A stretch of DNA of 64,000 nucleotides from Tubulanus polymorphus (taxonomy: Eukaryota; Animalia; Nemertea), in assembly GCF_964204645.1 (NCBI RefSeq), contig NC_134030.1:17050110-17114109 (forward strand), in the 5' to 3' direction. A program made the position numbers and the translations under genes. The number at the start of each line of letters is the position of its first letter. The stretch's first letter is position 1. Of the stretch, positions 1-56,962 are shown piece by piece. The notes under the pieces are model-generated. The model was not told where the DNA came from and made no database searches. It worked only from the letters and a program-made list of their open reading frames with translations.

Positions 1-178
1 TAAATTCATTTATATCTTTATATTTAACTAAATTTTGTGGGATTATCTTATCTAATTTATCTTGTTTTACTTTACGCCATATATTTTCAGTAGAAGAATA
101 AGTAACCGAACTCTCAGGGTTGTAATATAAATTTCTTAAATATTGTTCTTTAGTATTAGGAGTTTTTTTACCACCCAT
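1..178 (-). CDS. Polinton retroviral-like integrase, N-terminus (truncated by window edge)
   Basis: Manual translation from ATG at 178: MGGKKTPNTKEQYLRNLYYNPESSVTYSSTENIWRKVKQDKLDKIIPQNLVKYKDINEF, open to the edge. Fits the Polinton integrase N-terminal pattern L..(I/L)YY(D/N)P..S(F/Y)S....(L/I)(Y/W)..VK. The catalytic core is not in the window. Confidence 0.7.
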   Translation of the reverse strand, partial: MGGKKTPNTKEQYLRNLYYNPESSVTYSSTENIWRKVKQDKLDKIIPQNLVKYKDINEF

Positions 179-208
179 TTATATATCCTTAATTTTAACT
201 TTATATTT

Positions 209-1456
209 CTAATATTGAATACTATCTAATTGTGAATTTACAATATTTAATTGTGCGTCAGATATAATATAAATGTGCATTTTAAAATTTTTGATTCCTT
301 TTTTCTTTTTCATGAATAATTGTATTCCATCTTTAGTGTTCTGTAGTTTTTTCCCACAACCATGTAATGAATTATCCTCTGTTGTTCTAAAATCTAACCA
401 TAATGCATATTTATTGCCGGTATAATAATCAATTTGATTAATATTACAATTTTCAAATGATTTTACTTTTTCATTCATAAAATGTTTTCTAATTTCTGGC
501 CATTGATCTATCATTCTCATTCCCTGACAAAATATTTTATTTGCTATTCCTTCGATAGTTATTTCTACTTTTGTTATTTCAGGATTATAATAATTATCAA
601 CCTTTATTGCGCCATTAGAATATGTTGCAATTGTAAAAAATATTAATATACCTTTAATAGATCTTCTTGGGAAGTTAATATTCTCATTAATCATTTCATC
701 ATTTGCATTAATAGTTACAGTTTTAAATTTATCAATATAATCATATAATGATGAAAATCCTTGATTGTATTGAGTTTGAATTGTGCTAGCAATATTTTCA
801 TTAGTAACTGTGTCATATTCTAAACATATATTCGATAATTTATAACCCATATCTTTAACAACGCTAGATAATACAATTTCATTAACAGGAGCAAATGTTA
901 TCTCAAATGTAATATCTTCTTGAATTGCGTATTTATATAAAGGTGCATTATTATTTATCAATTCAAAGTCTAATGGAATTTTATATTTGCTTCCATAAAT
1001 CTTTTTAATCAAATTATCTGTGGCACGAGTTACTATTGCGTCATTAGCTCCTGATCTTAATTTATTATGGTTTTCCGATTGAATACCCTGAAATATCATA
1101 TTATTTCTATTTTCTTTAGTTAACCATAAATCTTTATAATGCATAAATAAATTATAATCATCTAATGAGAAAACTGTTTCCGGACCAATCTTTATAGTTA
1201 ATTTTTTAATCAAATATCTTCCAACATTATCAACAACATAATTGTTATCATGGCCAGTTACTTTTATATCGGCTGATAAATAAATACTATTTGGAACATA
1301 AAAAGTATTTTGTGTTAATCTATGAATTCTAACATATAAAGTTTCACCAGGATTAATATTTGAAGGGTTATTAGTAATTATCTGATGTGATCTTTCTGCT
1401 TTAATAGCATTAGATATTCTAGAAATCTTAGAAGGACTTATATAACTCCCACTCAT
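209..1456 (-). CDS. Major capsid protein (double jelly-roll/hexon-like) of the Polinton
   Basis: 415 aa, beta-rich. The N-terminal KAERSHQIITNNPSNINPGETLYVRI and C-terminal ALWLDFRTTEDNSLHGCG..LQNTKDGIQL resemble invertebrate Polinton MCPs; size and position fit. Confidence 0.75.
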   Translation of the reverse strand: MSGSYISPSKISRISNAIKAERSHQIITNNPSNINPGETLYVRIHRLTQNTFYVPNSIYLSADIKVTGHDNNYVVDNVGRYLIKKLTIKIGPETVFSLDDYNLFMHYKDLWLTKENRNNMIFQGIQSENHNKLRSGANDAIVTRATDNLIKKIYGSKYKIPLDFELINNNAPLYKYAIQEDITFEITFAPVNEIVLSSVVKDMGYKLSNICLEYDTVTNENIASTIQTQYNQGFSSLYDYIDKFKTVTINANDEMINENINFPRRSIKGILIFFTIATYSNGAIKVDNYYNPEITKVEITIEGIANKIFCQGMRMIDQWPEIRKHFMNEKVKSFENCNINQIDYYTGNKYALWLDFRTTEDNSLHGCGKKLQNTKDGIQLFMKKKKGIKNFKMHIYIISDAQLNIVNSQLDSIQY

Positions 1457-1480
1457 TTATTAAACAAAAAAATTAATTGT

Positions 1481-2946
1481 TTATTTTTTATTATTTTTTT
1501 CTTGATATCTTTTTGATATCATATTCACTAACCCAAAAATAATAGCACTTACAACTGTAATTAAAAATAAAATAATATGTTCAGCAGCAAAGTTAAGAAT
1601 ATTCCCAGCAGATTTCAATATAAAACCAACAATTGATGCAATAATTCCTGGTAATGCTGCAGCAGATTTTTTAGATAGTTCCCATAAATATTTTGCTAAT
1701 TTCTTTAAACCATCCTTAACTTTATCTTGTATAGAATTATTATCATTCGGGGGTTTATCCGGTTTATTGGGAGTAGGAGTAGATTTCAAAGCATTTGATA
1801 TTGCTAAACCAATTGGTGTAAATAACATAGTTACAGCTGTTAGAATTGAAAGAATTGTTATTCCTTCTAATTTAAATAATAACTTTATTCTATCTTTCAG
1901 TGATATTTCAGAATTTGGTTTTATCAATAAATCTTTAAAAATAACTTTTAATCTATTTATATTATAATCATATGATTTTAATGATAATTTAATTTCTTCT
2001 TTTTGTACTTCTAAATTATCCTTTAAATTATTAATTTCTTTTTCTAAATATGCATTTCTTTTTTTAAATTCGATTTCTTCAATAACTTTATTATCTCTAT
2101 CTAATTTTAATTGTTCTATTTCTTTATTTTTATCAGTTAATTCTTTTTCCAAATACATAATTTTTTGATCTCTTATACTTTTATTATGCGCAATTTTATC
2201 AGATGCAAGTCTTATACTAATAATTTCTCTAATTGCTTTATCAGAAAATATATCTAAATCTTCTAATTCTTGATCTGTTGCATCAAGTAATCCATTCGGT
2301 AAAAGTTTTTCAATTGGAACTTTATTTGATTTAAGTTTACTATTTTTGGAAGTTATATTCTGTTCAGAAGTTGTTTCTGTTTCTGATTTCTTTTTGATTA
2401 TTTCAAATAATTCATTAATTCTTTGTTTAAATACGTCTATATTATCATCTATATTATCATTTCTTTTTGTGTAACATCAGTTATTTCATTACTATTACTT
2501 ATTATTTTAATTCTATCTGGTTTTAATTTTTCTAAAGTTGATTCTGATAATATTTTATTTTCATTATTTTTATAAGTGATATCAATATAATAATCACCTT
2601 TCAAACGATAATAACATTTACCATTATCTAAAAATTTTAATTGATCTGCTAAAAGTCCAACGTCTTCATCATTTATGTTAAGTTTAGATTTTTCAATTAA
2701 ATCTTCTAATTTAGGTATTTTGTTTAAATTATCTAAATCTTGTTTTACTAAATCTGGGTCTAAATTTTCAGGATTTAATTGTGATTCAGCATTTTTAATA
2801 TAATCAGGCATATTCAAATTATTATTGTATTCTGGCTCATTACCATCATTAAAACTTGTTTCATCAAAATCAGGTGGTTGTTCATCAGTTATGCCAGGTT
2901 CATCAAAATTATCAATTCCAATATCTTCTCCACCCTCTACATCCAT
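1481..2946 (-). pseudogene. Coiled-coil plus C-terminal multi-helix membrane protein, split by a frameshift near 2462-2468 (ORFs 2449-2946 and 1481-2158 are one gene)
   Basis: The frame of 1481-2158 stays open upstream to about 2461 (NDNIDDNIDVFKQRINELFE...RDQKI|MYLEK). Only the ATG at 2946 has the shared upstream motif. Hydrophobic helices GITILSILTAVTMLF and LPGIIASIVGFIL. Confidence 0.7.
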
Positions 2947-2962
2947 TTATATAATAAAAAAA

Positions 2963-3976
2963 TTAAAATTTAAAATATAATATTCCTCCGATTACAATTC
3001 CTATACAAGTTAAAGCTAATTTAGTATTTTCATGGGATTTATTATCATTATCAGTTTTAATTATATCATGTTGAATATTATCAGTTTTAATATTTTCTGT
3101 AGTATTGTAATCTTTTATTTTGGAATCATTATCCAATTTAATATTCTTAGTTTTAGTTTCTGTTGATTGAATATGTTTTTTATTTTTTTCACCTTCCATT
3201 AATTTTGGAGCAGTAATTATCTTTTTATTTATATCATTCAATCCAAATGAATTATTTATTGTTGCAGTTTTAATTAGATTATTATAACCAATTATGTTTC
3301 CCATCTTTAATACTAAATCATTAGAAATAATTAATAGATTAGGGCCTATACAATAATTTAATCTAATATGTGATTTATCTAAATAATTTTGATATCTTAC
3401 AATGTTTTCTGGAATCGATCTATTTTTATCATTATGTATGGAATCTTCAAATAATACTTTGAATTGTTTCTGCGTATCAAATGATGTATTTAAATTTCCA
3501 ATTATTGGGGATCTTGTTTCAACTTGTGCACCTAGAATACATATCAAATAAGTTCTAATAGATTGATTTATTCTTTGTATACCTGATTTTGTAAAACCTT
3601 CATTATTTTCTAAAATGAAATAAACCCAACCATTATTGTTTTCTTGTTTTAAATTATCATAAAATGTCGGTAATTTATTGAAATTTAATGTTTCTAAATC
3701 CTTAGTTTCTATTTTACCATAACCTAATTTATTACTATAGATATTATACAAACTATTAGATGGTATGGGAAGTGTTGCTAGAAATGTTATTAAGGAACTA
3801 ATTGTAACCGAACCACTTATAATCAAATAATATATAATTTTACTTTTTAGATATTTTTTCTTTTTTATCTTTAAGTCACTTTCAAATTCTAATATTTGTT
3901 TTTCTAAATATATTTTTAATTTAGTTTTATTTATATCATGAGGAATAATATCAATATTATCAACTTTATCTTCCAT
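2963..3976 (-). CDS. Polinton hypothetical protein with N-proximal and C-terminal transmembrane segments
   Basis: 337-aa ORF with the shared upstream motif; hydrophobic IIYYLIISGSVTISSLITFLA and C-terminal LALTCIGIVIGGILYF. Confidence 0.7.
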   Translation of the reverse strand: MEDKVDNIDIIPHDINKTKLKIYLEKQILEFESDLKIKKKKYLKSKIIYYLIISGSVTISSLITFLATLPIPSNSLYNIYSNKLGYGKIETKDLETLNFNKLPTFYDNLKQENNNGWVYFILENNEGFTKSGIQRINQSIRTYLICILGAQVETRSPIIGNLNTSFDTQKQFKVLFEDSIHNDKNRSIPENIVRYQNYLDKSHIRLNYCIGPNLLIISNDLVLKMGNIIGYNNLIKTATINNSFGLNDINKKIITAPKLMEGEKNKKHIQSTETKTKNIKLDNDSKIKDYNTTENIKTDNIQHDIIKTDNDNKSHENTKLALTCIGIVIGGILYFKF

Positions 3977-3995
3977 TTATTTAGCAAAAAAATTA

Positions 3996-4418
3996 CTAAT
4001 TAGTAAACTTATAAGCAACAAATATAACAATAACAGTTCCGCCTAAAATCCAAATTATCTTATATTTCTTCTGTTCATTACTTGGGGTATAATAATCTGA
4101 TAATTTAGGTTTGTATAGATGTAATTTTTCTTTATTTGTTACCGCGTTATATAAACTCATTGCATCATCGACTGATTGAAAATCTCTATGTGAAATCTTC
4201 TGATCATATAATTCTTTATTGATATAATCCATATAGTTTTGTCTCTTTTCTCTATATTCTTCTGCAGCTTTATTATATTTCTCTAACGCTAAGTTATGTC
4301 TTCTTTGTTCTCCTAATGAACTATTTTTATCAATATGTTTAAATAAATAACCACCACCAGTAAATGCTAAAGCGTTAACAATTGCTGATCCTATAATAGT
4401 TATAATTGCAGAAGCCAT
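3996..4418 (-). CDS. Polinton small membrane-anchored coiled-coil protein
   Basis: 140 aa; hydrophobic N- and C-termini around a charged helix (EQRRHNLALEKY); shared upstream motif. Confidence 0.75.
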   Translation of the reverse strand: MASAIITIIGSAIVNALAFTGGGYLFKHIDKNSSLGEQRRHNLALEKYNKAAEEYREKRQNYMDYINKELYDQKISHRDFQSVDDAMSLYNAVTNKEKLHLYKPKLSDYYTPSNEQKKYKIIWILGGTVIVIFVAYKFTN

Positions 4419-4443
4419 TTATTTAGCAAAAAAAATTACGCAT

Positions 4444-4665
4444 TTATATGGGAGGAATATATTTTTGTTTTTCCAAATAATCAATAGTTAAATTAGATAA
4501 AGTAACTGCTAATGTTAATTTTAAAATATCATTTATATCAAATCTATCAACATTAACACTTCCCATTTTGAATACTTTTTTTAATACCATTGAATAACCA
4601 ACAGTTCCAACTGATAGTAAGGCGCCATTATATAATCCAGTTATTATCCACTTATTATCACTCAT
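4444..4665 (-). CDS. Polinton small hydrophobic protein
   Basis: 73 aa with two hydrophobic helices; the ATG directly follows the TAA of the upstream gene (TAAATG). Confidence 0.7.
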   Translation of the reverse strand: MSDNKWIITGLYNGALLSVGTVGYSMVLKKVFKMGSVNVDRFDINDILKLTLAVTLSNLTIDYLEKQKYIPPI

Positions 4666-5022
4666 TTATTTATCAAAAGAATTACTATCATCAAAATATT
4701 TAGTTATCTTATTTATGATTAATTCAACATTTATTTCATTACTAGTTTCATTTGTATATATTTCAATTATTATTTTTTTAATATCATCTACAATAAAACC
4801 TTCATCTAATTCATAAAATCTTAAAGATTCTCCAATTAAATTAGTAATCTTTTCTACATTTAAAGTTTCTTTATCTATTGTTGTTTTATACTCAAATGTT
4901 GTTTCATTAGAAAATTCAATATTTTTGATATGTGTAATTACATCATTAATGTTAAATTTCATTTCTTTCTCACATTTAAAATCAAATCCAAAACATATAC
5001 TCGGTCCAACAGTTATATTCAT
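4666..5022 (-). CDS. Polinton hypothetical acidic protein
   Basis: 118-aa ORF, tightly packed, with the shared upstream motif. Confidence 0.6.
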   Translation of the reverse strand: MNITVGPSICFGFDFKCEKEMKFNINDVITHIKNIEFSNETTFEYKTTIDKETLNVEKITNLIGESLRFYELDEGFIVDDIKKIIIEIYTNETSNEINVELIINKITKYFDDSNSFDK

Positions 5023-5038
5023 TTATATAATGAAAAAA

Positions 5039-5797
5039 TTACTCTTTACATCTTATAACTAATTCATAAATTACAGGAAAGTTATTCAAATCAATTAAAT
5101 ATCCATTATGATTTCTTATTTCTAATTTAAAATTATTGAAATGTGGAATACAAGGTTTGAAATCACATTCATATAAATTATAATTTATTTGAGTTCCAAA
5201 TTGTTTGACATTTTTTAATGGTAAAATATTTAATAAACCAGAATTACAAATTGTATCTTTAGTTGCTTCAAATGTTTTTGTTGGGTCAATCAAATTGCAA
5301 TAAATATAAAAATGTGTAAAAGGTATTAAGTTTGATCTACCTTCTGCGTATGCTGTAACAATATCTGGGTTAATTCCTAACAGTTTACCTAAAGGTTTTC
5401 TTACTGTAAATTTAAATTGTTCGTCATTAGCTAACCTAATCTTTATTTTATTAGAACTATCACTTTTTAAAATTCTAATACTAAATCCGGAATCACTTCC
5501 TAATTTAGCTCGAGCTTTTCTATTAATTTCTTGTGCTAATGTATCTAAATTATATAATCCTGGTTTTAAATATAAAAAAAACCATTTATTCCTTTTTTTG
5601 TAAAAGATTGAAAAAATTAAATGTTCTAGACTTTTATCCGATACATTATAAAAAGAATTACATCAACTTATATTTACTAATTTTAAATCAACACAATTCT
5701 TAAATTCTCTATCTAATTGAACTATTAAATTACGAGATTTATAATTTGTAAGTTTTCTAGAATCAACAAATATTCTGTATTCTTTTAATTCTACCAT
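5039..5797 (-). pseudogene. Minor capsid (penton, single jelly-roll)-like gene with a premature TGA at 5663-5665
   Basis: Manual translation from ATG 5797 is in frame with ORF 5039-5293: MVELKEYRIFVDSR...VNIS*CNSFYNV...LKPGLYNLDTL...LGKLLGI...FYIYCNLID...FKLEIRNHNGYLIDLNNFPVIYELVIR. These are penton-like motifs; about 252 codons with a single stop. Confidence 0.75.
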
Positions 5798-5865
5798 TAT
5801 TTATAACATAAAAAAATTACCGCTCATCACTAAAAATTAATTTTAATAAAATTTTTCCTTAATAA

Positions 5866-7182
5866 ATGGATGAGAAGATAGCATGCAAAATTTGTGGTGA
5901 ACTTCTAAGAAAAAGTAATATGGCTCGACATATGAAAAAACATGATGAAAATTATAAACCCCCTAAACTAAACTGTCCAAAATGTAATAAATTATTCTCA
6001 AGAAATTATGTTAAAAAACATTCAGAGAAGTGTAGAATTAATGGCGCAACGGCTAATGTTGATAGTAATGACTGTAATAGTAATTCTGCCGAAGTTGAAC
6101 CTGAAGTTATTTGGAAAAGACCTTTCTTATTCTATGATAAGGATAATATAAAAGATCATTTCTGTGAGCCTTGTCGAATAAAATATAGCCCTGAAAATAT
6201 AGAAGATTGGGAGAATCATCAATTTCGTAAAGTACATATAGATAAAATTTCTAATAAATTTGAAACTGAATTCAATGAAAGAAAAAATAATTTATTAGAA
6301 AAAATAAAATATGAGAAAACGTTACCAGATAATAAAGAAACAGTTGAAAAGTTAGAAAAACAATATAATGAATTAACAAGAAAATCATATTATTGTAAAT
6401 ATTGTAAATTGATTATTACAACAAGTAATTCAAATCTACATAATAGAACAATAAAACATAAAGAAAACGTAAGAAAATACCAAGAGCTTAATGAAGATCT
6501 ATTACCAATAAATTATAAACGAAAATGTCCACAATGTAGTTATGCGACCTTAAGACAAGAAGGTACTGTGTTATTTTGTAATGAATGTGGATGGCAAAAG
6601 AATTTATTGGGTGAAGAAAAAACTAGAAATTTTCTCTTAGATCCAAAATTAAATTATCTTGATGAAATTTTTAAAATATTTTCTATAGAAGATCATACAC
6701 CAGAATATATGCAATGGCTTGAAAAAATGAAAATAATAGAAAATGAAAATGGTGAAATAACTAAAAAAGATATTATAAAAACAATTATTCCATCAACATT
6801 TAACACAAAACAAAAGAAAATGTATTTATATTTATTATTTAACGATTATTATGAAAAACCTAAATTAACAGAAGAAGATATGAAAAATATAAAAAAAATA
6901 TTCAAACAAATATTAATGTATCATTTGGAAAATAGAATAACAGATTCAATAAATTATGAATTCTTTTTAAATAAGATTGTAAATTATTTAAACATAGATA
7001 TTATAATTCCATTTGATGAATTAACAAACAAAAAGAAACAAAGAGAGCGAGATGAAATGTGGAACAAGGTAGAACTTTATTTAAATGAGAAAAATGAAAT
7101 GGAGGAAGAACCTAAACAATTAAATGAAAATGAAGAAGCCAATAGTGATTTAGATTATGATGATATTGATTTTATGTTTTAA
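5866..7182 (+). CDS. Multi-zinc-finger protein with a C-terminal VLTF3-like (NCLDV late transcription factor 3) domain
   Basis: C2H2-type fingers (CKICG..HMKKH, CPKC..H..C, CEPC..H..H, CKYC..H..H), a C4 ribbon CPQC-x13-CNECG, then PKLTEE..KKIFKQI..NYEFFLNKIVNYL..KKQRERDEMWNKV, which resembles the VLTF3 C-terminal consensus. Confidence 0.7.
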   Translation: MDEKIACKICGELLRKSNMARHMKKHDENYKPPKLNCPKCNKLFSRNYVKKHSEKCRINGATANVDSNDCNSNSAEVEPEVIWKRPFLFYDKDNIKDHFCEPCRIKYSPENIEDWENHQFRKVHIDKISNKFETEFNERKNNLLEKIKYEKTLPDNKETVEKLEKQYNELTRKSYYCKYCKLIITTSNSNLHNRTIKHKENVRKYQELNEDLLPINYKRKCPQCSYATLRQEGTVLFCNECGWQKNLLGEEKTRNFLLDPKLNYLDEIFKIFSIEDHTPEYMQWLEKMKIIENENGEITKKDIIKTIIPSTFNTKQKKMYLYLLFNDYYEKPKLTEEDMKNIKKIFKQILMYHLENRITDSINYEFFLNKIVNYLNIDIIIPFDELTNKKKQRERDEMWNKVELYLNEKNEMEEEPKQLNENEEANSDLDYDDIDFMF

Positions 7183-10100
7183 TGACCATAAGGTAATGTT
7201 TTTATACCATCATCTAAAATATGCCTTTTATCATCAAATGGATTTAAACTAGTTTTTTCAACTTCATTAATGTACATCTCATGATCTTCTGATCTTAAAC
7301 AATTCATTTTATGTTTCATTACAATTGATTTATATAAACACTTTATATAATCTTGAAATTCTATAAATTCTACAACCACATGTTTTGTTATTCCTTTTAA
7401 CTTTTTAGCTTCGTGATCTTTTGTTCTGTAACTATACATTTTACTTCTTATCCCAACAAATTCAATCATTTCATCACCCCCTAATTCATCTTTAAATTTA
7501 CCAGGAATCTTTTTATTATCATTGCTAAATAGTTCATGATCTTTGGGATAATTGCTAAAATCAAAATGATGTTTTAATGTTTTTAAGTCTTTTGTTATGT
7601 CATTTGTCTTGATTTTTAGTATGTAACTGTCGGTATTTTTTTGGATTAATGGGAACCCAGAATTGAATGTTCCATCATCTGTTGATAAATCATAAACATA
7701 ATCTGTTGGGTTATATATTTCAAATAAATCTTTAACTTCTTCTGTTAATTCTTTTTCTACATGCCTTAAATTAAAACAATTTGGTTTAGATTTAATTAAT
7801 TCTATATTCATATTAAATCCTAATGAACTGCATAATATATTTAATCCTGATATAGCAACTTTTCCTTTCTGTGCAAATGTTATCTTTTTATCCTTTGTAA
7901 ATTTTTTAGTGCCATCTGCGGCATAGAATCCAATGAAGAACCACTTTCTTAAATTATTTTTTGCATTTAATACATAATCTGGTACTATCTTTTCTTTTGT
8001 TGAAGTATTACTTTTCACTATTGCATGAATATAGAATTCATCATTATATTTTATAGCAAAATCTTTAGGATTATTCACATGTATTCTATAACATTGCGAT
8101 GATTTCATAACATCTATGATTTTGAATGTTTTATGTGAATAAACTTCTTCACAGAATTTCTTAATTCTTTCTAATAATTTTAAGTCTTGATTGCATAAAT
8201 ACCAACAATATTTTTTACCCCAAACATAATTATACACACCTGCTGAACCATCACCCAGGAAAAATCCTTTGATAAAATATTCTTTTTCTTCTAATGTTTC
8301 GGGTTCTATATTATAAATATTATCAATTATTTCATCAAATGACATATGATTCATTCTTTGGAAAAATCTTTTATGTAATAATTCATCTCCAATTTTTATA
8401 CCAGTTGGTTTTATTTCATCACCATTTCGTTTAATTAAATTATGATCTTCTGTAACATCTACAAATCCTAATTTAGTTCTAACTCTATAGATTTTCTTAT
8501 TTGTTTTATGTCTAATAATATTCTTTAATTTTTTCCATCCATTTCTTGTCCAAACATCCATTAATCCATTTATTTGTATTAATTCTTTTTCACCATATGA
8601 AATATAACATTCATTTTGTTTTGGAATTATTTCTGAAATTCTTCTTATCAATATTTTATCATTACATTTTAATAATATTGGGGTGTCAGCTGTTACAGAA
8701 TCAAAATATAATATTTCAATATGCTTTTCCCCAAAAAGTGGTTGTAAAACATTATAATAAAAATCATACATTAATAATTTTGATACTTCTAAAACAGTCG
8801 AACCAATAAATATAGGTTTATTAAATTTCATTAACGTTCTTTTTAATTTAACTGCTGTTAAATAATCTTCAAATCTTTTATTTCCTAAATGTCTAGGACT
8901 TGATTGTAAATGTCTTAATCGTTCAGAATTATTTACTAATTCAATATCATTTCTATTTCTAATATTTTCGCATGTTTTACCATAAAAACTATTATTCATT
9001 AATTTGAAGAAATCTTTTTCAAAATCTGTTTTTGATATTGTTCTCTGTTGAGTATTGAAATCTATATATTTTTCTAACCACTTCGATTGATTAAATTCAA
9101 TATATCTATGTACTTTCTTTAATTTCATTCCTTGTTTTAGATAAAATTTTAACATTCTATAATGAACAATATAATTGTATTTATTATTTTGAGTAAGTAT
9201 TAATTTTTCTGTAAAAACATGATCTTTCGGTTTTATTTTCTTCTGGTATTCACTTAAATAACTATCATCTACAGTTAAATGTTCTGGGCAATAAGGTAAG
9301 TTTCTTGTTTTAAACTTTATATTTTCAGGATATTCTAAATCAACTACAAAGAAATAACCAATTGGTGCTTCATCTTTTAAACTCGCAATTGCGCTTTCCC
9401 AATCAGTTTTGTTATCATTTTCAACTTCTGTTAATATAAAATTTTTATATGGTTGAGGTTGCATCATTGCCCAACCATATAAATTATTGGCGTCAATATA
9501 TAATAATTTATATTCATCATTTGCTTTAAAATACCTATCTCCCATAACACCACTAATTCCACCTCTAATTGATTTTTCAAATAATAAAACCATATCTGGT
9601 TCTTTTAATAAATCTAATTCTACATTTGTATATTTGAAACCACATTGCCGGGTTAAACGAGGACTAGAGTAGCAATAACAAGGATCAACATTAAAATGAT
9701 TCAAATTAACTTCTCTAAATTTTTCAAATATGTCAGCCAATATCATAACATCTGATTTTAAATATAAATCAACTAATTCGCCATGATTTTTCATCTTAAA
9801 ATGGTTCCAAATATTTAATGTTCTATTAAACACTTCGTCTTTCACATACTCCTCTTTTAATTGATCATAAAATTGATCTTTTAATAATTCTGTTACATTA
9901 AAATCATCATGTGTTTTGTAAAATGAATAAGGAATTGCACCTTTATATCTCAATAATTTAAAATCTTGTTCATTTGGATAATAATATCGAGTTATAACAA
10001 AATCATTATCAACTAAACTTTTTGATAAATTATCTAATGAACTTGCTAGAAATCTATAAGAATCTAAAAATCTAATGCAACCAAATTGAAATGAAATATA

Positions 10101-12239
10101 ATTTTCAGATGTTTTAGCTAATAGTTTAAAATCATATTTTCTTACATTTGCTTCATTCATAGCATTATATTCTTCTATTTCTTGATTAATTGCGCCCAAT
10201 TTTCCCGATAATTGTTTTATAAATAGATGGGTATCATATCCTGATAAATTATGAAATAATATTGGTACGAAATTTACTTTTTTAGCTTGTAAATTGCAAT
10301 CTTCATGAGCAGCTCCACGATATTTTGAATTCAAATGATCATGATCTCTAACTTTTTTATCAAATGAATAAAAACGTTTTTCACAATAACAACAATGAGT
10401 TGCATAATTAAAATCAATTTCATCTTCTTTTGTCATAACTATTCTTTTATTTTTGTTTAATAATTTTGCAAAATCACTTTCTAATTCAATCATTTTGTCA
10501 CAAAAATCATTAACTACATTTTCACCTCTAAAAGAAATATATTGACTTTCATATAATTCAGGATAATTTGATTTTATATAAATTCCATAAGCAGCAGCTC
10601 TTTGATGAACTTTTTTAATTGTATTTATAATTGGTGGGTCTTGAATTGTGTCTTCATTTAATTCATTTCCTTTATCCATTGATTTTAATAATTGCTTTTT
10701 GTTATATATTTCTTTTCTATCTTGATCAGTTAATTCTTTATTCAACGATTCAAAATCCCCATAAATTACAAATGGAACAATATTTTTAAATTTATGATCA
10801 GTAAATTTCAATTTATAATCTTTTTCTGTTGGCATTATTAATTTACAAAAATCTTTATTATCACATAATTCTTTATGTTTTAGTAACGCATTCTCAGTTC
10901 TAAATTTAGATAAACATTTTCTACATAGATAAATTTTATGGCTGTTAAAATCACTTTCTGTTCTAAAGAATAAATCAATTTGTTTTAACCACATATGATG
11001 TTCATTTTCATCTTTTTTGTAATATAACAAATCTATAGCATTTTCATCATCATAATATTCTGTTAAATATAAAGCTTCCAATGTATAATCTTTAATATTT
11101 TCACCTTTTGTCTTTGGTAATTGCATTAATTCGAATACATTTATTTTTAACTTATTAATTTTTTCTATTTTGGGTATCATTTTTATAGTTACTGGATATT
11201 GATCAATTTTATATAATGTTTCATATTTCCGATAATCTGTTATTCTACAAACATTTTCCTGTGTTGGATGTAAGCAACTAATAATTGACCATAGAAAACA
11301 TTTATTATCTTCATTTTGAATATTTATTACTGCTTTTGTCGTAAATGGTAATTTAATATAAGATGATGCTTTAATATCCTTTTCTGTTGTAAAGTTTGAA
11401 TCATTTTTAAACATTGTTTTACTTTTTGATGTTTTATTTCTTTTTGTATTGTAAACATTTAAATCTAAATATATAATTTCATTCAATGTTAAGCCAGAAC
11501 CCTCAAAATATCTTTCTTCAATATGACGTTTAAATCCATTAAATATTTTTTCTAACTTCTCTTTTATTTGTGTTTTTGAAATTATTTCTTCAGAGTGTGT
11601 TTGAATATTATAATTCATTTTTTCTTCTGACTTTATAAAACTTACTTTCCCAGAGATACTAATTTTTGGATATTCAACATCTGTTATCAAATCTAGTATT
11701 TTTTCTACTATTTCATTAAATTTACTATAATCTTCTATTGTTGTACCTTTAAAGAATCTAAATATAATAGCCGCAGGACCAATTTTACTATGTAATGTTT
11801 CTAAAATTTCAATTGTATCTTTTATTTCTAGTGAATCAATATAATTTCTAACATTTTCCGTGTAAGGTTTATTTGAAATGGATTTAGTTTTTGAAGTTGG
11901 TTTTTTTACTTTTTGAGGTTTATCATCGAAATAATCTTTTCCTAAAACATTATTACTCAAATTTTGATGGTGTTTTTGTGATTCGAGATGTCTGTTATAA
12001 TTCCTTTTTACTATAAATTCATTACAAACTTCACATTTTATTATATCCACATTCATATTTTCTAATCGTTCTTTTCTTTCATTGGAATTTTCTGGAGTTT
12101 CAAAATCTATTACATTTTTTATATGATTTGAAGACTTTTCATGACGCGATTTTTGAGATTTATCAATGTATTTTTTACAATATGGACAATGATATTGATT
12201 TTCATTAACATCAATTTGTTCTGTCTTATTCTCTTCCAT
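7179..12239 (-). CDS. polB: Protein-primed family B DNA polymerase (pPolB) precursor with intein; about 1331 aa after splicing
   Basis: ExoI VIYGDFES, ExoII FHNLSGYD, ExoIII YLKSDV, motif A YIDANNLYGWAM, motif B KLMNNSFYGK, motif C YFD|TDS split by the intein, and C-terminal GKFKDE/SKMY/KGI/FDDKR typical of Polinton pPolB. Confidence 0.96.
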   Translation of the reverse strand: MEENKTEQIDVNENQYHCPYCKKYIDKSQKSRHEKSSNHIKNVIDFETPENSNERKERLENMNVDIIKCEVCNEFIVKRNYNRHLESQKHHQNLSNNVLGKDYFDDKPQKVKKPTSKTKSISNKPYTENVRNYIDSLEIKDTIEILETLHSKIGPAAIIFRFFKGTTIEDYSKFNEIVEKILDLITDVEYPKISISGKVSFIKSEEKMNYNIQTHSEEIISKTQIKEKLEKIFNGFKRHIEERYFEGSGLTLNEIIYLDLNVYNTKRNKTSKSKTMFKNDSNFTTEKDIKASSYIKLPFTTKAVINIQNEDNKCFLWSIISCLHPTQENVCRITDYRKYETLYKIDQYPVTIKMIPKIEKINKLKINVFELMQLPKTKGENIKDYTLEALYLTEYYDDENAIDLLYYKKDENEHHMWLKQIDLFFRTESDFNSHKIYLCRKCLSKFRTENALLKHKELCDNKDFCKLIMPTEKDYKLKFTDHKFKNIVPFVIYGDFESLNKELTDQDRKEIYNKKQLLKSMDKGNELNEDTIQDPPIINTIKKVHQRAAAYGIYIKSNYPELYESQYISFRGENVVNDFCDKMIELESDFAKLLNKNKRIVMTKEDEIDFNYATHCCYCEKRFYSFDKKVRDHDHLNSKYRGAAHEDCNLQAKKVNFVPILFHNLSGYDTHLFIKQLSGKLGAINQEIEEYNAMNEANVRKYDFKLLAKTSENYISFQFGCIRFLDSYRFLASSLDNLSKSLVDNDFVITRYYYPNEQDFKLLRYKGAIPYSFYKTHDDFNVTELLKDQFYDQLKEEYVKDEVFNRTLNIWNHFKMKNHGELVDLYLKSDVMILADIFEKFREVNLNHFNVDPCYCYSSPRLTRQCGFKYTNVELDLLKEPDMVLLFEKSIRGGISGVMGDRYFKANDEYKLLYIDANNLYGWAMMQPQPYKNFILTEVENDNKTDWESAIASLKDEAPIGYFFVVDLEYPENIKFKTRNLPYCPEHLTVDDSYLSEYQKKIKPKDHVFTEKLILTQNNKYNYIVHYRMLKFYLKQGMKLKKVHRYIEFNQSKWLEKYIDFNTQQRTISKTDFEKDFFKLMNNSFYGKTCENIRNRNDIELVNNSERLRHLQSSPRHLGNKRFEDYLTAVKLKRTLMKFNKPIFIGSTVLEVSKLLMYDFYYNVLQPLFGEKHIEILYFDSVTADTPILLKCNDKILIRRISEIIPKQNECYISYGEKELIQINGLMDVWTRNGWKKLKNIIRHKTNKKIYRVRTKLGFVDVTEDHNLIKRNGDEIKPTGIKIGDELLHKRFFQRMNHMSFDEIIDNIYNIEPETLEEKEYFIKGFFLGDGSAGVYNYVWGKKYCWYLCNQDLKLLERIKKFCEEVYSHKTFKIIDVMKSSQCYRIHVNNPKDFAIKYNDEFYIHAIVKSNTSTKEKIVPDYVLNAKNNLRKWFFIGFYAADGTKKFTKDKKITFAQKGKVAISGLNILCSSLGFNMNIELIKSKPNCFNLRHVEKELTEEVKDLFEIYNPTDYVYDLSTDDGTFNSGFPLIQKNTDSYILKIKTNDITKDLKTLKHHFDFSNYPKDHELFSNDNKKIPGKFKDELGGDEMIEFVGIRSKMYSYRTKDHEAKKLKGITKHVVVEFIEFQDYIKCLYKSIVMKHKMNCLRSEDHEMYINEVEKTSLNPFDDKRHILDDGIKTLPYGH
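7635..8699 (-). mobile_element. Intein (355 aa) with LAGLIDADG homing endonuclease, inserted at the PolB motif C (pol-c) site
   Basis: Starts Ser (YFD/SVTADTP), block B VDVTEDH, LAGLIDADG motifs FIKGFFLGDGS and FFIGFYAADGT, block F YVYDLST, ends KN followed by +1 Thr (TDS). Removal restores YFDTDS. Confidence 0.95.
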
Positions 12240-12262
12240 TTATAAGGAAAAAAAATTACTTG
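12240..12262 (-). promoter_or_regulatory. Representative copy of the shared viral upstream motif TAATTTTTT-N(3-7)-ATAAATG
   Basis: Minus strand reads agtaatttttttttccttataaATG before polB. Near-identical context precedes the ATGs at 1456, 2946, 3976, 4418, 5022 and 5797. Confidence 0.7.
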
Positions 12263-12561
12263 TGGTGATGAGTGGGGATTACTTCCCCCTGTATATAACA
12301 AGCGCGCTATTAACCGTTCTCACCCAAGCCTCACAGCATCTATTTATCCGGGTACAGTTGACACGCAATCACTGTACTACTACAGTAATAGCACAGTACA
12401 GAGACTCACTGTATCGATCTATCCACGCGCAGTTGTTGTTACGCGCACTCACTGTATATGTGTGTCACAGAGCAATCGTCCGTTCTCACTAGAGCCTAGC
12501 TGTGATGAGTGGTGTCTCGACCTCTCGACCTCTGATCTGAAAACGCCATCTTCTAATTACT
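12263..12561. repeat. Probable Polinton terminal inverted repeat (partner copy outside the window)
   Basis: Non-coding and more GC-rich than the element body, with short internal repeats (actcactgtat x2, ctcgacct x2). Ends ...ttctaattact at 12561. Confidence 0.55.
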
Positions 12562-12859
12562 TTCGGCTAGTGACCTCTTCATGGCCAAAAATTATACAGA
12601 ACAGAAAGTAGTTACTTCCGAAAGATTTTTCTCTGGAATCGTGCCGGAAATTTCCGGAGGATTTTTTTCCGAAGTATTTCTGGCCGGAGGTCAGATTTCA
12701 GGAGGATTCTTTTCTGGAAGATATCTGGCTGGGGTGATGGGGTGGGCAGAATCCCGGAGGATGTCTTTCCGGAAATTTCCGGATGGTTAGTTGTTAGAAG
12801 TGTTAGGGTTTAGGGGTTAGGGTTTCGATTATAAGGTTTTAAATGCGTTAGGTTTTAGA

Positions 12860-15800
12860 GCATTATGAGAATGCCGGTTTGCTAGCGTATCTATTTAACA
12901 CCCGTATTGCTCGGGTTAGTTTTACTATCAACGGGTGGCGCTGTATGTAAATTTCACATAAATCAAAGACTTTCGGCTATTTCCACTTGAAAACATCATA
13001 GTCATACGGTTGTAGTGAACATAAAAAGATACAGTACAAAGATACAGTACGGTGTACGGACATGATTCCATAGGACCCATACCAGAGACATTTTGTTCAG
13101 ACAAGGACTATATAGTTAAACACTAATCTTCATTTTCAGCAATTAACGATCTGGTGAATTAATTAGTGATTCGGTCTTTCGGTGGTTCGAGATAAAATGC
13201 CCGCAAAATAAGAACCTAACGAACCAGGGCTGACCACAAATTGCCCAACAGATAAATTTTCGAAACGACACAATCCAATCATGTTTGGTATCAAATGTGG
13301 CGTGGACCATGGTCTTTTAACTGACCAATGCATGACCAGTACTGACCATATAGTAAATTATTTGTTTGCAAACAATTAAGTTGTTTGGTGTCAAATAACT
13401 AGATATGATGTGGGCATTAATCTAAAAATTGTTTAACTGACCAATGCTTGACTAGTACAGACCAGTTACCAGTGCTAACCAGAACTCCCCATAAGTAATT
13501 TATATGTTTAGTGAATCCTTCGTTAGTACTACTAGCTCTTACATTTAAATTTGTCGCTTGAAAAAGTCTTGTCCGATTTTTGTTGTAGGTAGCGAGCTAA
13601 CTTTGAAATTCCGCTAAAATGCATACGATTTTTACGTAGGGTTTTGAACGAACAACGTTTCCATTTGTAATTGTAACGTGCGCATTTGAGCCTGTAACGT
13701 GCACATTTCACTCGCGTGAACGTGCGTATCGGTACCAACGTGCGAGACTTGTCAAACTTTTACGATCAAGACTTTTAAACTGAACAAAGAAGATGTCATA
13801 TCATATTATATATACATGAATAGATGGAATGATAATGTAGTAGTTTTAAATGTTTCGTAGCTGCTGTCCACTGACCACAGATAAAAGCTAATTGCCTGAT
13901 ATGAAATATATTTTTGTTATAGAGATGTAGTAGATCAGTGAGAATTCAAACTTATGGTTAATTTTGAGTGATCACAACGCTAACCAATAGAGAAAGATGT
14001 AAGGCCTAAGAAAAGATGCATTAAGTATAACATATCTTTCAATATAATGATGAAGTATTCAACTGGCCATCACAACAATAGTTTGACTTATCTTAATGAA
14101 AAATACTGGAGTGTTAATGGGAAAACCTTGAATTCGAAACAATTCCACATTCAATTGTTTACTTTGAAAACACAATTTGCATTTTGTGGACATGTATTTT
14201 TTTCTGCACCAAAAGCATGAAGTATATTATCTTTGCTTGTAAAAATTTGAAATTTTGGGGAAGATTTTTGGCCTCGTTAACCTGTGATCACGTCCTTCAT
14301 ATATTTTCTAAGACCGACCCTTGAAATAATGCTGAGAGTTTCGAGGATAATTTTGGTAGGATGTAAACTTAGGCTGCTTCGTATCCGTGGAGGGTTGCTA
14401 ATTATTGATTCTATACACAATAATCATAAGTACCATGAGATTCGATAGAATATCGTTTTTCAATCATACGTACACGAATTATCGCGATATAAAGATAAAT
14501 AATATGTTCATATACTTTTTACGTCTTAAACTGTATATTTCTTCAGTAGTATAAATAAAGAGTGGATCAGCAGGCCACCTGAGACCATTCCACGATCTAA
14601 GGTCAGTTGCCAAAAGTTAGTAAGTTTACCAGTGGATAGTTAACATTTATAATGACAATTAAATTTTCATTGCTAAAATAACTTTGTACTTGTTGACTCA
14701 AAAGCAGAGAATTGAAAAAACGATAATACGATACGAAAACTCAGTGTACAAATTCAAAAAGATTATCTCTAGTGAGAGATCGAACGTTGTGTCGTAATTT
14801 TCTAATGATAAAACATGGTTTGAAATTTGAAATGTGTACATAGTTGATCTCTTTCAGTGTATTTAGTCATGTATCATATTGGATGATGGTTAATTTAAAC
14901 TATCTTTTGAGAAACGGGTCCCAGAGCTGTATCCTTTACTCCTGTAATAGAGGATGCAATCTATTTGCGACAAACAGCTAGTGCAAATAGCTAGAAAAGG
15001 TAACAATAGTGCATTGGCAAACTTAGAGCAAGCGTACATTGGTTGTTTAGGTTTTTCGAAGGGGTGAATTTGTGGGAAAATTAATCATTACTGAGATATA
15101 TCCGTGGCGAGCTTTTCCAGGGATTTAAAAAGTTGAGCTGTACACAAGGAATTTTGTGTAGTCCAATATCTGTGATTACCTCTGGCGTGGAGAGACACAA
15201 TCTAAAACCAACCCTAGAGTCAAATATTTTACCACAATTTTTTATGATCAATAAAAAGATTGAGTAATAGACATTCAAACAGTATTATCTAAATTCCACT
15301 CCATTTTAAACTCATTCATCTCTACACAAACTCCAACTTGTTGAACAGTCCACTTTAAAATTAGGGACCACTATTCTTGCTCATCTACACTGGCTACCAA
15401 TCTAACAAAGGATTAAATTTGAGTGTTTGATGTTATAACAATACCAGACTGAATTATGGATTCGGTTTCTACTTTTTAATTGAACATTTATATCACATAT
15501 TGGGCATCATTTTTACCAGTATATATGGAATAACCTATCCATATATCATGTTCAATTTTATATAATCTGACTTTTGAGATGTCATTCAATCAATGCATTC
15601 ACATGCGGTCGTCGCTTTCAATAGCCACCACGGACTGGCTCCTTATTATTTCTTTGGCGATACCATTGGCGGACGATCCCACACGTTTCTTGCTCCAGCC
15701 CTAGAATGCTCAATATTCGTCATGAACCCCGATTTGAATTTAAATTCAAAATACTCCCAAAACACGCCTGTTAACTAGATTACTCTAAAACACCTTTATG

Positions 15801-37063: not shown

Positions 37064-39660
37064 CTAAGATATCTTCGAAACCTCCGCGACTTTGATCCAT
37101 ACAAAGAAAAATCTAAATATACGACCTCCAAAGGCTCCGATGTAACGATAGGAATCAATCGCTTGTTGGGTAGGGGTACTTGCATCAAACACTATAGCAA
37201 TCTCTGACTGGGGAACTACGACTTTCAACGACTCAACGCCATCCTCAAAGACCGTCCGACACAGAAAGCAATCACTTAAACAAAGCGAATCCGCAAAACG
37301 TTGCCACTTTCGATCCAAATGAGAAAACAGACGATATCGCCCCGTTCTAGTAATCTGTCCAATATTTCTACTCGGATCAGAGTCTAACTCTTGCGCGGCG
37401 ACCATACACCTCCGGCCAACTCCCAAGGCTTCAAAATCCTGTTAGGGATTAACAGACGGAAGAGGAAATGCAAAAACAGACTGACAAACGGCATGGACGT
37501 CATCGAGGATACACACTTACGACTCAAGGCATCAGCATCCACGTTGGATTTGCCGGAAATATACTCTAAAGTTAAATCGCAAATGGCTAAACACTGTAAC
37601 CAGCGATGGCTGGTCGCATCCTGTAAGGTTAACGGATTCGAGTCCGTTTTGACACACATACATTACCGTACAAGTAGTCATTAAGGGCCTCAGACAATGA
37701 CCACTTGAGAGCCAGAAATTCCAACTTGTGGACCGGATAATTTCTCTCGATGGTTTAAGGCCGTGGAGCTATGAGTCGTAATTTTCTTTCCTGAGCAGGC
37801 CCCTAACCCACCCAGACTCGCATCGGTATGTAGTTCGAAAGGTAAGGAATAATCAACATACGCCAAAACTGGCGGTTCAGATGATAACTCCTTCAATTGA
37901 TCAAAAGTGGACTGCTGAGCCTCGGATTCCCCTTCAAAAGTTCGTTTAGTGGCTTCGCTATTTTGGCAAAACCCTTTATAAACCGCCGGTAGTAAGAAGC
38001 GAATCCCATGAAACTCAGAACTTCACTTACGGATGTGGGGGTTTTCCACGCTCTAATGGTTTTAGTCTTTTCAGGGTCAGGCTCGATACCCGCCTCGGAA
38101 ACTACGCGGCCAAGGTGAAGAACTTTCTCCTGGAAGAACGAACATTTCGACAGTTTTAAGTTTCAGGCCAGCATTTTTCAGCTTCTGGAAAACATTGTCT
38201 AACGGCACTAGATGTTCAATCGAGGCCGAAAATACGATGATGTCATCGATATAAACGAGACACTCTTTCAACGAAAGATCACCGAGGCTTCGCTCCATTA
38301 AGCGTTGGAATGTAGCCGGAGCGCCGGTAAGTCCAAAAGGCATTACCTCACACTCATAAAATCGGAAACCTGGGCCAACGTTGAAAGCAGTGTATTGCTT
38401 ATTCTCCTCGTCCATCTGAACTTGCCAATAGCTGGATTTTAGATCCAGGCAAGAAAAATATCGGGAACCATAGAGGGCGTAAAGTTGCTCGTCAATGCGA
38501 GGCAAACAATAGCGTTCTGGGATAGTACGTTTATTTAATTCCTGGTAGTGGATACAAAATGGCAGCTCACCGGTCTTCTTTCTGACTAAAACTACCGGTG
38601 ACGCAAATGCGCTGGATGACGCTTTTATAACCCCAACCTCGAGCATCATACGGAGATGGTCCCTAACCTCATCCACCATACCAGGCGGAATTCTACGATA
38701 CCGCTGATTTATCAGAGTGGTATCCGTGAGATTAATCTTATGCTCATTTAGATGAGTGTGTCCAAGGTCAAAATCACTAATTGAGAAAATAGACTGCCTT
38801 GCCCACAAGAGATTCATAAGCCTCTCCCTGGCTTCGTCCACAATCGTGGACCAGATCCATACGATCCTCTAAACTGATTTTGTCCAGCTGGCCGGGGAGT
38901 GGGAACCCAATTCCGATAGACAGGTCTTTCCGCAACCTGTTTCACGGTTTTGGAAAGCTTTTCAATTTCAGCCGAAACTTTGCAAAAGCCTCCTCCCATC
39001 CCGGGGAACCCGAACCTGGAGGTTGAGGCCTCTGAACTGGAGCCTGAACTGAAGCGATGGTTTTCCTTCCAGAAACGACGTTACCGGACTCCTGTTCACA
39101 TTCAGCCTTCCGCGCTTCCTTGACCACGTCATTATATGAAGCTTTTGTCTGAAAAAGATGGTTCTCTTCCAAAGAATAAACCTCACCGGATATCAAAGAG
39201 AACTTATCCAAGACCTGATCCATATCGGCATCTTCTCCAGCATTAAACAGAACCCCCACTGCACCCCCGCACAAAGACCTTCTCATTACCATGCGAATTT
39301 GCGTCATTATATGAAGCTTTTGTCTGAAAAAGATATCGGTTACAGCCGCCAGGCAAACACCTAATCTTCCCCATGAGGTTATCGAGATGGCAAGACCACT
39401 GACTAATGGTTTCCATTGCCTACTGCATCGAAACATAAAACTGCCGGAGACTCTCTTCCTAAGAATAAACCTCACCTGATATCAAAGAGAACTTATCCAA
39501 GACCTGATCCATATCGGCATCTTCTCCAGCATTAAACAGAACCCCCACTGCGCCCCAACGCAAAGACCTTCTCATTGCCATGAGAATTTGCGACCTGGAA
39601 TAGTTGGGATCCTTCTGGAGTGCCCTAACTTCAATTTTCCACTGCTGGAAGGTTGATTCA
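37064..39660 (-). mobile_element. Decayed Ty3/Gypsy retrotransposon internal region (PNMA-like gag, RT, RNase H)
   Basis: RT motifs FASPVVLVRKK, LDLKSSYWQ, MPFGLTGAPATFQR, YIDD (38077-38841); RNase H ELHTDAS and GKSNVDADALSR; many frameshifts; internal duplication in gag (about 39130-39600). No LTRs seen. Confidence 0.9.
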
Positions 39661-45600: not shown

Positions 45601-47717
45601 GCGTTGTTGCGAAAATATGCAGACAGCATAGCCAAATTCATAATCGTTATGAGCCACGATAAATGATTTGCAATTAAATCGATATACTGAGATTTATGAT
45701 TCTGTTAAAGAGTCACAAACAAATGAGTCATGACAACGGTTTTGAAAATGAAGTATTATTTATTCATCAAAAATTGCAATCAGGAGACAAGTATGTTGTA
45801 CAGTAGTTTATACAATATATTCAAAAATTCATTGAAAAATGGGAAGAATTTTTTTCTTAAACACCAAAATCAATTAACAAAATATTCAGAAATTCAGAAG
45901 ATTTTTTTTTCTCAATGAAACACTAAAAACACTTTGCGAGTGTTTCCATCTATGAATTAACGGGCGTAATAACCCCACTGATGGGACCAAAGATCTCTAT
46001 CTTAATTTACTCACCTGAAAGCAAATCTTACAGATACAGTTTTTATGAGTATACATATTCTACATTTTTAAGGGCATCAAAAACATGTCTCTTCAAAACT
46101 ATCTCGATTACATATGTTTGCTTGTACATTTAATTGATACACTTAATAAATATAGTTTTTGATTGTAAGTACAAACTGAGCTATACGTTTCATAAACAAC
46201 GTTTAGAACACCGTGGACGATTTAACATAGCAGAAAAATTAACACCAGAGCTTTGATAAGGTGAAACAAAGTTAAATGAAAGCAAAAGCACATTAAGGAG
46301 ACAAAATCATAGTAGATTAGAAAATTGATATCAGTGCCACCATAGATACACAGCGTTAGATAGAAATAGAAGGAAGTAACAATTACCTTACAAAATACAA
46401 ACCATGCCAATTTTCAATGGAAATAAAAACAACACATTTTATATATAATTCAGCGCAGATATAAAGTTCCCGAATGGGAATAAAACTCATTTAGACATGT
46501 TACATGATCATTATTCATATCATTTCTCGTATTACTACTGATGACAACAGATGGTGTACAAAATTAGCATACTTCTTCCGAACACAATTGTTATTCAAAT
46601 GATAATAAGTATTCTGAGGTTTTTGAGATGTCTTCCAACATTTATCATGTTTATCAAAATATGTACGATAATCTAGCTTTTTGATAATAAGTTCTCCGGA
46701 TGATTTATTGTTGAAACTTTGACGACGACCATAGCAAACCCGTATATTAAATCCACACCGAAAAATTGCCTCAAATCCCTGACTAGGCAAAGCTTTGTCT
46801 GAGACAGAGTTCTGATTTGAGTGGTGTCTGCACTGTATGTCGCCTTAAGTGCCAACTGCTGCCAAGTTGATTCCAGTAGTTGCTATACCAGAAACATTGT
46901 TGAAAGATTTTTTTACATTTTCCCCGCTAAGCTAAAAAAGCTGGCAATCCCAACTTTTCTGCTACAGCAACTGTGTGAGAACAAAGACTATGGAACTTGT
47001 ATTGTGCACAGGTATATATAGATTTATTATTATTAGTATGATGAACAACTTGATTGTTAAGGTTAGATGATAAACTAATGACACAATACAGTTTAATAGC
47101 CGGAACCCTCGATGGTGCAACTGCTATCGAGTCAGATGAGTAGCAGCTTTCTCCCACATTGGCATCAAAATTGCATCTGCAATCGATATTCTTGAGGCAC
47201 TTTTAGCTTGGTCCAAGGTTACTGATATAGATGATGAGTGCAAAGTAACATTTTCTTTATTATATAGCCGATGCATTGCGTAGCTGTAATTTCTATTAAG
47301 ATGATGTTTTCTTTGTTGAGGCGTCATTTTCATAAAATTATGTTAAATTATGTATTAATAACGAATCATTGAAATCATCCCTGATTTTGAATTTCTGGGA
47401 TAAACCAGCGTATGCCAGTGAAATTTCTTCACGTTCGGCTTTGACCATCTTTTCAATTACCTTTACAAATGCAGCTTCCCCCATTTTCTTTCCCTGTAGC
47501 CAACGTCTTATCTTAGCATTTGTGCTTTCCGATGAGTTAGTATAGAATGGTGGATACCCTAGTCCAGAGCTTGCTCGAACATCAGCGCTCAAGTTATATT
47601 TTACTACAGTCACACGGTCATCAAGAAATCGTAAAACCCCTTAAAACCTTCAATATCAGCAAATTTATCACCCCATTTATTCTTTAATTCATTAAAACGT
47701 TCATCAAATTCAGAAAG

Positions 47718-56856: not shown

Positions 56857-56962
56857 CTAGAATAGACAAACATAAAAAAAGAACTAACGTCTTGTTCATT
56901 CAATGTGATATGAATTCAAAGCTATATGCACTTCGATTCCTGAATTAATAATATGATATAAT

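Follow-up and report, generated by a model that had tools for sequence, protein, structure and literature searches.

Bases 1 to about 12,260 of a 64,000-nt stretch of contig NC_134030.1 (the whole stretch is hereafter the window) are a partial Maverick/Polinton element, through which the left window edge cuts, and all ten of its gene starts carry a common signal in which TAAAT overlaps or closely precedes the start codon, mostly behind a run of T. The genes for a double jelly-roll capsid protein and a protein-primed polymerase, together with the start of an rve integrase gene, give the Maverick/Polinton assignment; that is, the window genes belong to a Polinton and not to a giant virus. We consider that the T-run, a spacer of 5–8 bases and TAAATG together are probably a late-type promoter for which a large DNA virus of the cytoplasm, co-infecting the cell, would supply the RNA polymerase, a function that we infer from the layout of the sequence.

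In the window, TAAAT lay on or at most 3 nt before the ATG at 10 of 10 gene starts, nine of them having strict TAAATG. ATAA directly preceded the ATG at nine starts, vs. 10 of the 485 other ATGs of the element, and the tenth, at 5797, read TAAATAATG. The T-tract TAATTTTTT was found upstream of 7 of the 10 starts and 3 of the 485 other ATGs; relaxing it (one C allowed, leading T dropped) gave 9 of 10 and 9 of 485. The individual signals are listed here.

176..197, minus strand: start signal of the A-rich type (TAAAATT..ATAAATG), without a T-run, at the integrase gene
1454..1474, minus strand: start signal of the capsid gene, consisting of AAT, T-run, 6 nt and TAAATG
2944..2964, minus strand: start signal whose TAA doubles as the stop of the 3976 gene
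3974..3994, minus strand: start signal
4416..4437, minus strand: start signal with eight T
4663..4683, minus strand: start signal wholly within the 3' end of the 5022 gene, the TAA of TAAATG being the stop of that gene
5020..5040, minus strand: start signal whose TAA doubles as the stop of the 5797 gene
5795..5818, minus strand: start signal with TAAATAATG, heading its unit
5850..5868, plus strand: start signal of the zinc-finger gene, divergent from 5797
12237..12257, minus strand: start signal of the polymerase gene, with eight T, 5 nt and TAAATG, and no gene upstream

A T-run stood 5–7 bases upstream of TAAAT at 8 of the 10 starts, the distance from its end to TAAAT being 6, 6, 6, 6, 6, 7 and 6 bases at 1456, 2946, 3976, 4418, 4665, 5022 and 5797, and 5 bases at 12239. 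Start 178 has an A-run in its place, and start 5866 has both an A-run and a T-run. Tandem genes are separated by only 30, 24, 16, 19, 25, 0 and 16 nt, and the divergent pair by 68 nt. An earlier note on this DNA had reported ATAAATG at nine of ten starts, T-tracts before seven of them and mostly short gaps, all of which we could reproduce, each of its ten coordinates being an ATG start with the context claimed. Its statement that the T-tract is the same at 3976 and 4418 stands for the presence of a T-run and fails for its length (seven and eight T, respectively). It had also placed the signal at nearly every gene; all ten do have it, although the note had passed over a 225-codon ORF without the motif at 2158, which is the downstream piece of the frameshifted 2946 gene and therefore no counter-example. 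The cassette pattern occurred 10 times in the element (nine at starts, one internal) and twice in the 51.7 kb of flank; 300 Markov resamples averaged 2.6 occurrences and never exceeded 8. P values for motif enrichment in the window (about 1e–11 to 1e–13) are inflated because the patterns were picked after the data had been seen; relatives therefore serve as the independent test.

A metagenome scan yielded 22 capsid loci, and polymerase scans yielded 36 further, more distant loci, all treated with a single ORF caller. We defined the clade as the window with L001–L014 and L017 (capsids 52–75% identical). L015, L016 and L023–L058 minus L047 formed the outgroup, and L018–L022, which are short, have broken frames and show the motif at 0 of 10 starts, were excluded from both. 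No capsid relatives were found in viral or prokaryote collections. TAAATG occurred at 54 of the 66 de-duplicated clade starts, vs. 18 of 338 in the outgroup and 8 of 97 in its AT-rich subset; subtracting the window's 11 starts leaves 45 of 55. The motif is kept in clade loci of 36–44% GC (L006–L008). AT bias as its cause is ruled out by these AT-matched and GC-rich controls, and the enrichment over AT-rich background, for which the earlier note proposed a check, holds in the Markov resamples as well. In a quick capsid tree (L017 absent, L014 labelled as clade), a branch supported at 98 sets the clade loci apart, and the signal is a trait of one capsid clade. Aligning 59 starts on TAAAT gave A at –15 (0.78), T at –10 (0.76), T at –9 (0.92) and A at –1 (0.86), and among the 40 starts with at least four T the spacer measured 5–8 nt in 35 and 5–7 nt in 26.

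Some loci beyond the clade have start motifs of their own. The distant Polinton-like contig L047 (IMGVR_UViG_3300020002_000020; polymerase 29% identical), counted separately, has TAAATG at 7 of 7 starts, mostly without a T-run; including it would raise the outgroup count to no more than 25 of 345. A quick polymerase tree does not place L047 as sister to the clade, and the signal may therefore have arisen twice. In the nearest motif-less relatives, L015 and L016 (which overlap), 7 of 8 starts have a TAGA no more than 40 nt away, vs. 41 of 235 for other loci, and L040 has TCTA, similar to the CroV late box, at 5 of 9 starts; promoter turnover is possible, the numbers being small. Polinton proteins and contigs filed in bacterial or archaeal bins (P0044, P0161 and L023–L036) are likely binning contamination.

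Divergent gene pairs distinguish a start signal from an end signal. Both starts were TAAATG in seven of nine such pairs in the relatives, vs. 0 of 40 in the outgroup, and in six of these seven the ATGs are 19–30 nt apart. The gaps of the nine pairs measure 19, 24, 24, 28, 28, 30, 64 and 72 nt, and the ninth pair overlaps, probably through a false ORF; among the short pairs, two closely copy two others. The motif is present at 16 of the 18 divergent starts, where no gene lies upstream, and such sites are therefore not stops, poly(A) sites or terminators. Judged by this placement, the motif is a start signal and not a terminator, a poly(A) site or a stop–start junction. We would be greatly surprised if it served instead in RNA processing or translational coupling, as an AATAAA poly(A) site, a splice acceptor or a place of stop–start re-initiation on a long message. 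AATAAA does occur at 5 of the 10 window starts, a stop abuts the start at 4665, and at 2946 and 5022 the upstream gene ends on the TAA of TAATTT; however, the nine bases before the ATG hold no AG at any of the 10 window starts, stop abuts start in only 1 of 39 tandem pairs of the relatives, and the divergent starts have the motif regardless.

The earlier note had further read TTTTTNT here as a poxvirus early terminator, a reading that the data do not bear out. A dual cassette, in which TTTTTNT would end the upstream transcript and TAAATG begin the next, is very unlikely. TTTTTNT is present at 6 of the 10 window starts and is mildly depleted on coding strands (9, vs. 14.8 in synonymous shuffles, P ∼0.02, a weak support), but it is found at only 22 of 59 clade starts, precedes genes that are first in their unit (12239 and 5797) and so have nothing upstream to end, and recurs within the capsid, 5797 and polymerase ORFs (one, three and five copies). 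TTTTTNT is known to act only on early transcripts, and no window gene start has a poxvirus-type early promoter. Bacterial promoters were also considered and rejected (105 sites, vs. 118 in shuffles).

Reading by host RNA polymerase II is rather unlikely. Each gene would then have a compact promoter with the T-run as pyrimidine initiator, and ATAA would be an A-rich translation context. At the usual spacing, a TATAAA next to the ATG would put the transcription start inside the ORF; divergent ATGs only 19–30 nt apart leave scant room for two promoters and their leaders; and in roughly one clade start in three an A-run takes the place of the pyrimidine run (a run of at least four T is present at 39 of 59). 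The translation context likewise fits poorly: position –3 is T in 55 of the 66 clade starts but A in 199 of 338 outgroup starts and in 65 of 97 from equally AT-rich Polinton-like loci. T at –3 is a poor context for scanning ribosomes, and would be harmless if the leader arises by slippage. What favours the host polymerase is that the element, with its integrase, sits in an apparent host chromosome, and that coral Polinton genes are expressed (PMC11131425).

No RNA polymerase or other transcription gene was seen in the window, in 22 scanned ORFs of relatives or in a family table of 19 loci, no copy of the element being complete, and the likely reader is therefore a helper large DNA virus. The cytoplasmic viral RNA polymerase proposed in the earlier note is thus favoured, with the amendment that its source, which the note left unnamed, would be the helper. 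It is improbable that the element is autonomous, with its own polymerase or late factor encoded outside the window, in the manner of yeast linear plasmids. The element's left part does lie outside the window, and yeast pGKL is likewise a protein-primed replicon with a TAAAN initiator and slippage leaders, transcribed by its own RNA polymerase (PMC6211774, in its accessible part). Yet pGKL differs in having an early-type upstream box and neither capsid nor integration; neither the 22 scanned ORFs of relatives nor the family table contained an RNA polymerase, a capping enzyme or a late-factor family; and L001 and L002 extend beyond the capsid gene to integrase, ATPase and small genes (no locus is complete, and several ORFs are unassigned).

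The published features of poxvirus promoters, so far as the accessible portions of the sources go, match this layout. The vaccinia late promoter has a T-containing core, 5–7 bp, and TAAAT(G/A) overlapping the start site (PMC5294985); a conserved T lies ten bases upstream in poxvirus late promoters, and intermediate promoters have an A-rich upstream region (PMC11980589). TAAA is read directly by the viral polymerase (PMC12917281), slippage yields 5' poly(A) leaders in vaccinia and in yeast linear elements (PMC6211774), TAAATG is reported in a fish poxvirus (PMC4542343), and other virus families are described with different motifs (PMC5294985). Shared with our element are TAAAT over the start codon, a T-rich core 5–7 bp upstream and an A-rich variant at a minority of genes. 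Our signals differ in lying on an integrated Polinton, at every gene including those for polymerase and integrase, in a conserved AA before the T-run and in a T peak at –9, and their function is a prediction. The poxvirus late-initiator reading of the earlier note is thus upheld by agreement with the published layout, conservation in the clade and presence at divergent starts, which no gene precedes. Under the helper-read promoter, a large DNA virus would co-infect a cell carrying the integrated Polinton, its RNA polymerase would read the TAAATG signal at each Polinton gene post-replicatively, and the transcripts would get slippage-made 5' poly(A) leaders; the integrated Polinton would be a virophage-like parasite, dormant without its helper and not read by the host. 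The layout best fits a poxvirus-like helper, which is possible, at well under even chances, and another nucleocytovirus, for instance a member of the Pimascovirales, is about as likely.

An intein in the polymerase offers a second approach to the helper.

7635..8699, minus strand: 355-aa intein with a LAGLIDADG domain, at the YxD/TDS site of the polymerase

It is missing from the three closest polymerases (P0157–P0159), but P0164 and P0173 have it, and its allele also occurs in polymerases of large-virus type. RNA-primed family B polymerases give the best matches (PF00136 in 28 of the 30 top matches scanned; by motif, 104 of 150 matches RNA-primed and 44 unclear), and an intein common to RNA-primed polymerases suggests that the element was once in contact with large DNA viruses. 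The polymerase of the top match resembles cellular polymerase delta in PDB rather than poxvirus polymerase, and the top intein scores belong to Pimascovirales-related polymerases, several of which match in at least two stretches. Among 79 giant-virus loci gathered through intein-matching polymerases, a Pimascovirales-related clade (L179–L184, L212, L214, L223 and L261) had ATAAATG at 18 of 83 starts, vs. 47 of 716 in the other giant-virus loci; many of its further starts are TAAAATG, there is no steady T-run, and an extra stretch of one member had TAAATG at 4 of 18. ATAAATG is a candidate late initiator of this lineage. A bin in the branch neighbouring the clade is Pimascovirales PM_06 (PMC8575486, from the part accessible), and the capsid gene of the classified Pimascovirales bin lacks TAAATG.

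Several observations weigh against a helper-read late promoter, or against a poxvirus as the helper. The element and all its relatives are incomplete, leaving room for a self-encoded factor, and L014, within the clade, has 0 of 2 strict TAAATG starts. The peak of T conservation falls at –9, a single base away from the –10 given in review, and the poxvirus match was made with published descriptions. From the rate in the Pimascovirales-related clade, the ATAAATG initiator is not unique to poxviruses. The intein tree joins the Polinton intein to neither that clade nor the poxviruses. A scan of viral contigs for the exact cassette (120 stretches) gave no helper candidate; the stretches listed (80 of 120) had one match each, and of 122 matches 22 fell at an open frame. 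Finally, coral Polintons are expressed in ordinary colonies, with no known helper, according to the accessible text of PMC11131425.

ATPase genes have fewer T upstream (five genes, P = 0.008) and capsid genes have one to six. Two promoter classes remain tentative because of this capsid range and because in several loci the A-run is the T-run of the divergent gene. A more specific proposal, which we regard as doubtful, is that these integrated Polintons of invertebrate genomes are true virophages of an undescribed poxvirus-like helper. All their genes would be driven by post-replicative promoters that fall into two timing classes, one with an A-run for the packaging ATPase and one with a T-run for most other genes; sister Polinton lineages would have exchanged the box when changing helpers, and the promoter would predict the helper.

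Mavirus has a protein-primed polymerase and an rve integrase. Virophages carry the late promoter of their helper (PMC6401483, 10.1101/2025.10.09.676808 and PMC6510173, as far as their accessible parts show): mavirus and EMALEs with CroV, and Sputnik and Guarani with mimivirus, resemble our case in being small capsid-coding elements with a shared pre-gene motif that matches the late promoter of a large virus. They differ in that the motif here is not TCTA and the element is of Polinton type in a probably animal genome. Entomopoxvirus-associated Polinton-like viruses were proposed as poxvirus parasites in animals from co-purification (Barth et al. 2024, PMC11296320, accessible part); unlike the element here, they are without an rve integrase. 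With Mavericks/Polintons (Polintoviricetes; adintoviruses) the element and its relatives share the protein-primed polymerase, rve integrase, A32 ATPase (in relatives) and double jelly-roll capsid, whereas other Polinton-like loci have A-rich start contexts and the low TAAATG count given above (18 of 338), and no protease has so far been found in our clade.

The element part of the window is gene-dense with 21–26% GC, vs. 31–47% GC, transposon remains and no long genes in the rest. To judge by this flank, the host is probably an animal; searches for tRNA genes and Rfam families gave no match. Its features are as follows.

1..12262, no strand: gene-dense part of the Maverick/Polinton, AT-rich (21–26% GC)
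2..178, minus strand: N-terminus of the rve integrase, continuing past the window edge, 47–61% identical to integrase N-termini of relatives
209..1456, minus strand: major capsid protein, double jelly-roll, 415 aa, by predicted model and Foldseek
1481..2946, minus strand: conserved gene with hydrophobic C-terminus, frameshifted near 2450 (ORFs 2449–2946 and 1481–2158)
2963..3976, minus strand: 337-aa gene with no Pfam match, corresponding to two adjacent L001 ORFs
3996..4418, minus strand: 140-aa conserved small gene, in a family of 7
4444..4665, minus strand: 73-aa conserved small gene, in a family of 5
4666..5022, minus strand: 118-aa gene, N-terminus similar to L001
5039..5797, minus strand: gene of 252 codons, interrupted in frame by a stop (codon 45), 42% identical to an intact 254-aa L001 ORF
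5866..7182, plus strand: 438-aa zinc-finger protein (zf-U1, E 5e–7), the sole plus-strand gene, N-terminus similar to L001
7179..12239, minus strand: 1686-aa protein-primed family B polymerase, whose homologs at 45–54% identity carry PF03175
12263..12950, no strand: GC-rich non-coding stretch, in which GC rises from about 0.25 to 0.36–0.54

The catalytic part of the integrase lies beyond the window edge, and two relatives match rve and a chromodomain. The capsid model (pLDDT 87) retrieved the PBCV-1 capsid in Foldseek (E 9e–18), as well as iridovirus and mavirus capsids. Two window genes are broken: the 2946 gene by the frameshift near 2450 and the 5797 gene by its early stop. The former is a single unbroken ORF in L001 (485 aa) and L010 (453 aa). 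From its size and motifs the 5797 gene is, as a guess, possibly the minor capsid protein; the predicted fold of its L001 homolog had a pLDDT of 39. A homolog search with the zinc-finger protein found no match, and the polymerase ORF itself had no Pfam polymerase match. The A32 packaging ATPase occurs in relatives and is not among the genes inside the window, and no cysteine protease was found among the 22 scanned ORFs of relatives, whose loci are incomplete. The stretch at 12263..12950 may hold a terminal inverted repeat; no second copy was found in the window or in the relatives' loci, and the right end of the element was not located.

Other observations concern repeats and cargo. The 8-mer GTGATGAG/CTCATCAC occurs three times (5823–5830, 12265–12272 and 12502–12509), two of the copies flanking the zinc-finger and polymerase module in inverted orientation. 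Bases 12560–12930 hold TTCCGGA-rich repeats, TTAGGG-like repeats and a short hairpin, and may represent a terminal repeat or a host element. Transposon remains in the flank, at 38077–38868, 47338–59629 and 63147–63998, include reverse transcriptase, a hAT dimerisation domain, transposase-like pieces and a GIY-YIG ORF, and the tandem and nested inverted repeat clusters at 50488–51169 and 55121–55799 are probably non-autonomous transposons or satellites. L001 has a deoxynucleoside kinase gene with a T-run start signal (10340–10981), an unusual Polinton cargo.

Poxvirus-associated Polinton-like viruses and helper-matched promoters in protist virophages are already known; the combination of both in an integrase-bearing Polinton clade appears unreported. 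Our search, which covered literature outside subscription journals and preprint supplements, found none linking TAAAT(G) or the poxvirus late promoter to Polintons. The word 'promoter' is absent from PMC8502044, PMC11131425, 10.64898/2026.06.19.733378 and 10.64898/2026.10.13.758929, and neither 'promoter' nor 'motif' occurs in the accessible part of PMC11296320.

Animal Mavericks/Polintons may be nuclear viruses that need no helper, transposons, or parasites that depend on larger viruses. If all genes of one clade carry a late promoter of helper type, this is sequence evidence for the parasite option. If this is true, Polintons could be sorted by likely helper through their promoters, the mavirus model of an inducible integrated virophage would extend to an animal-type Polinton, and the signal would point to an undescribed large DNA virus in these hosts.

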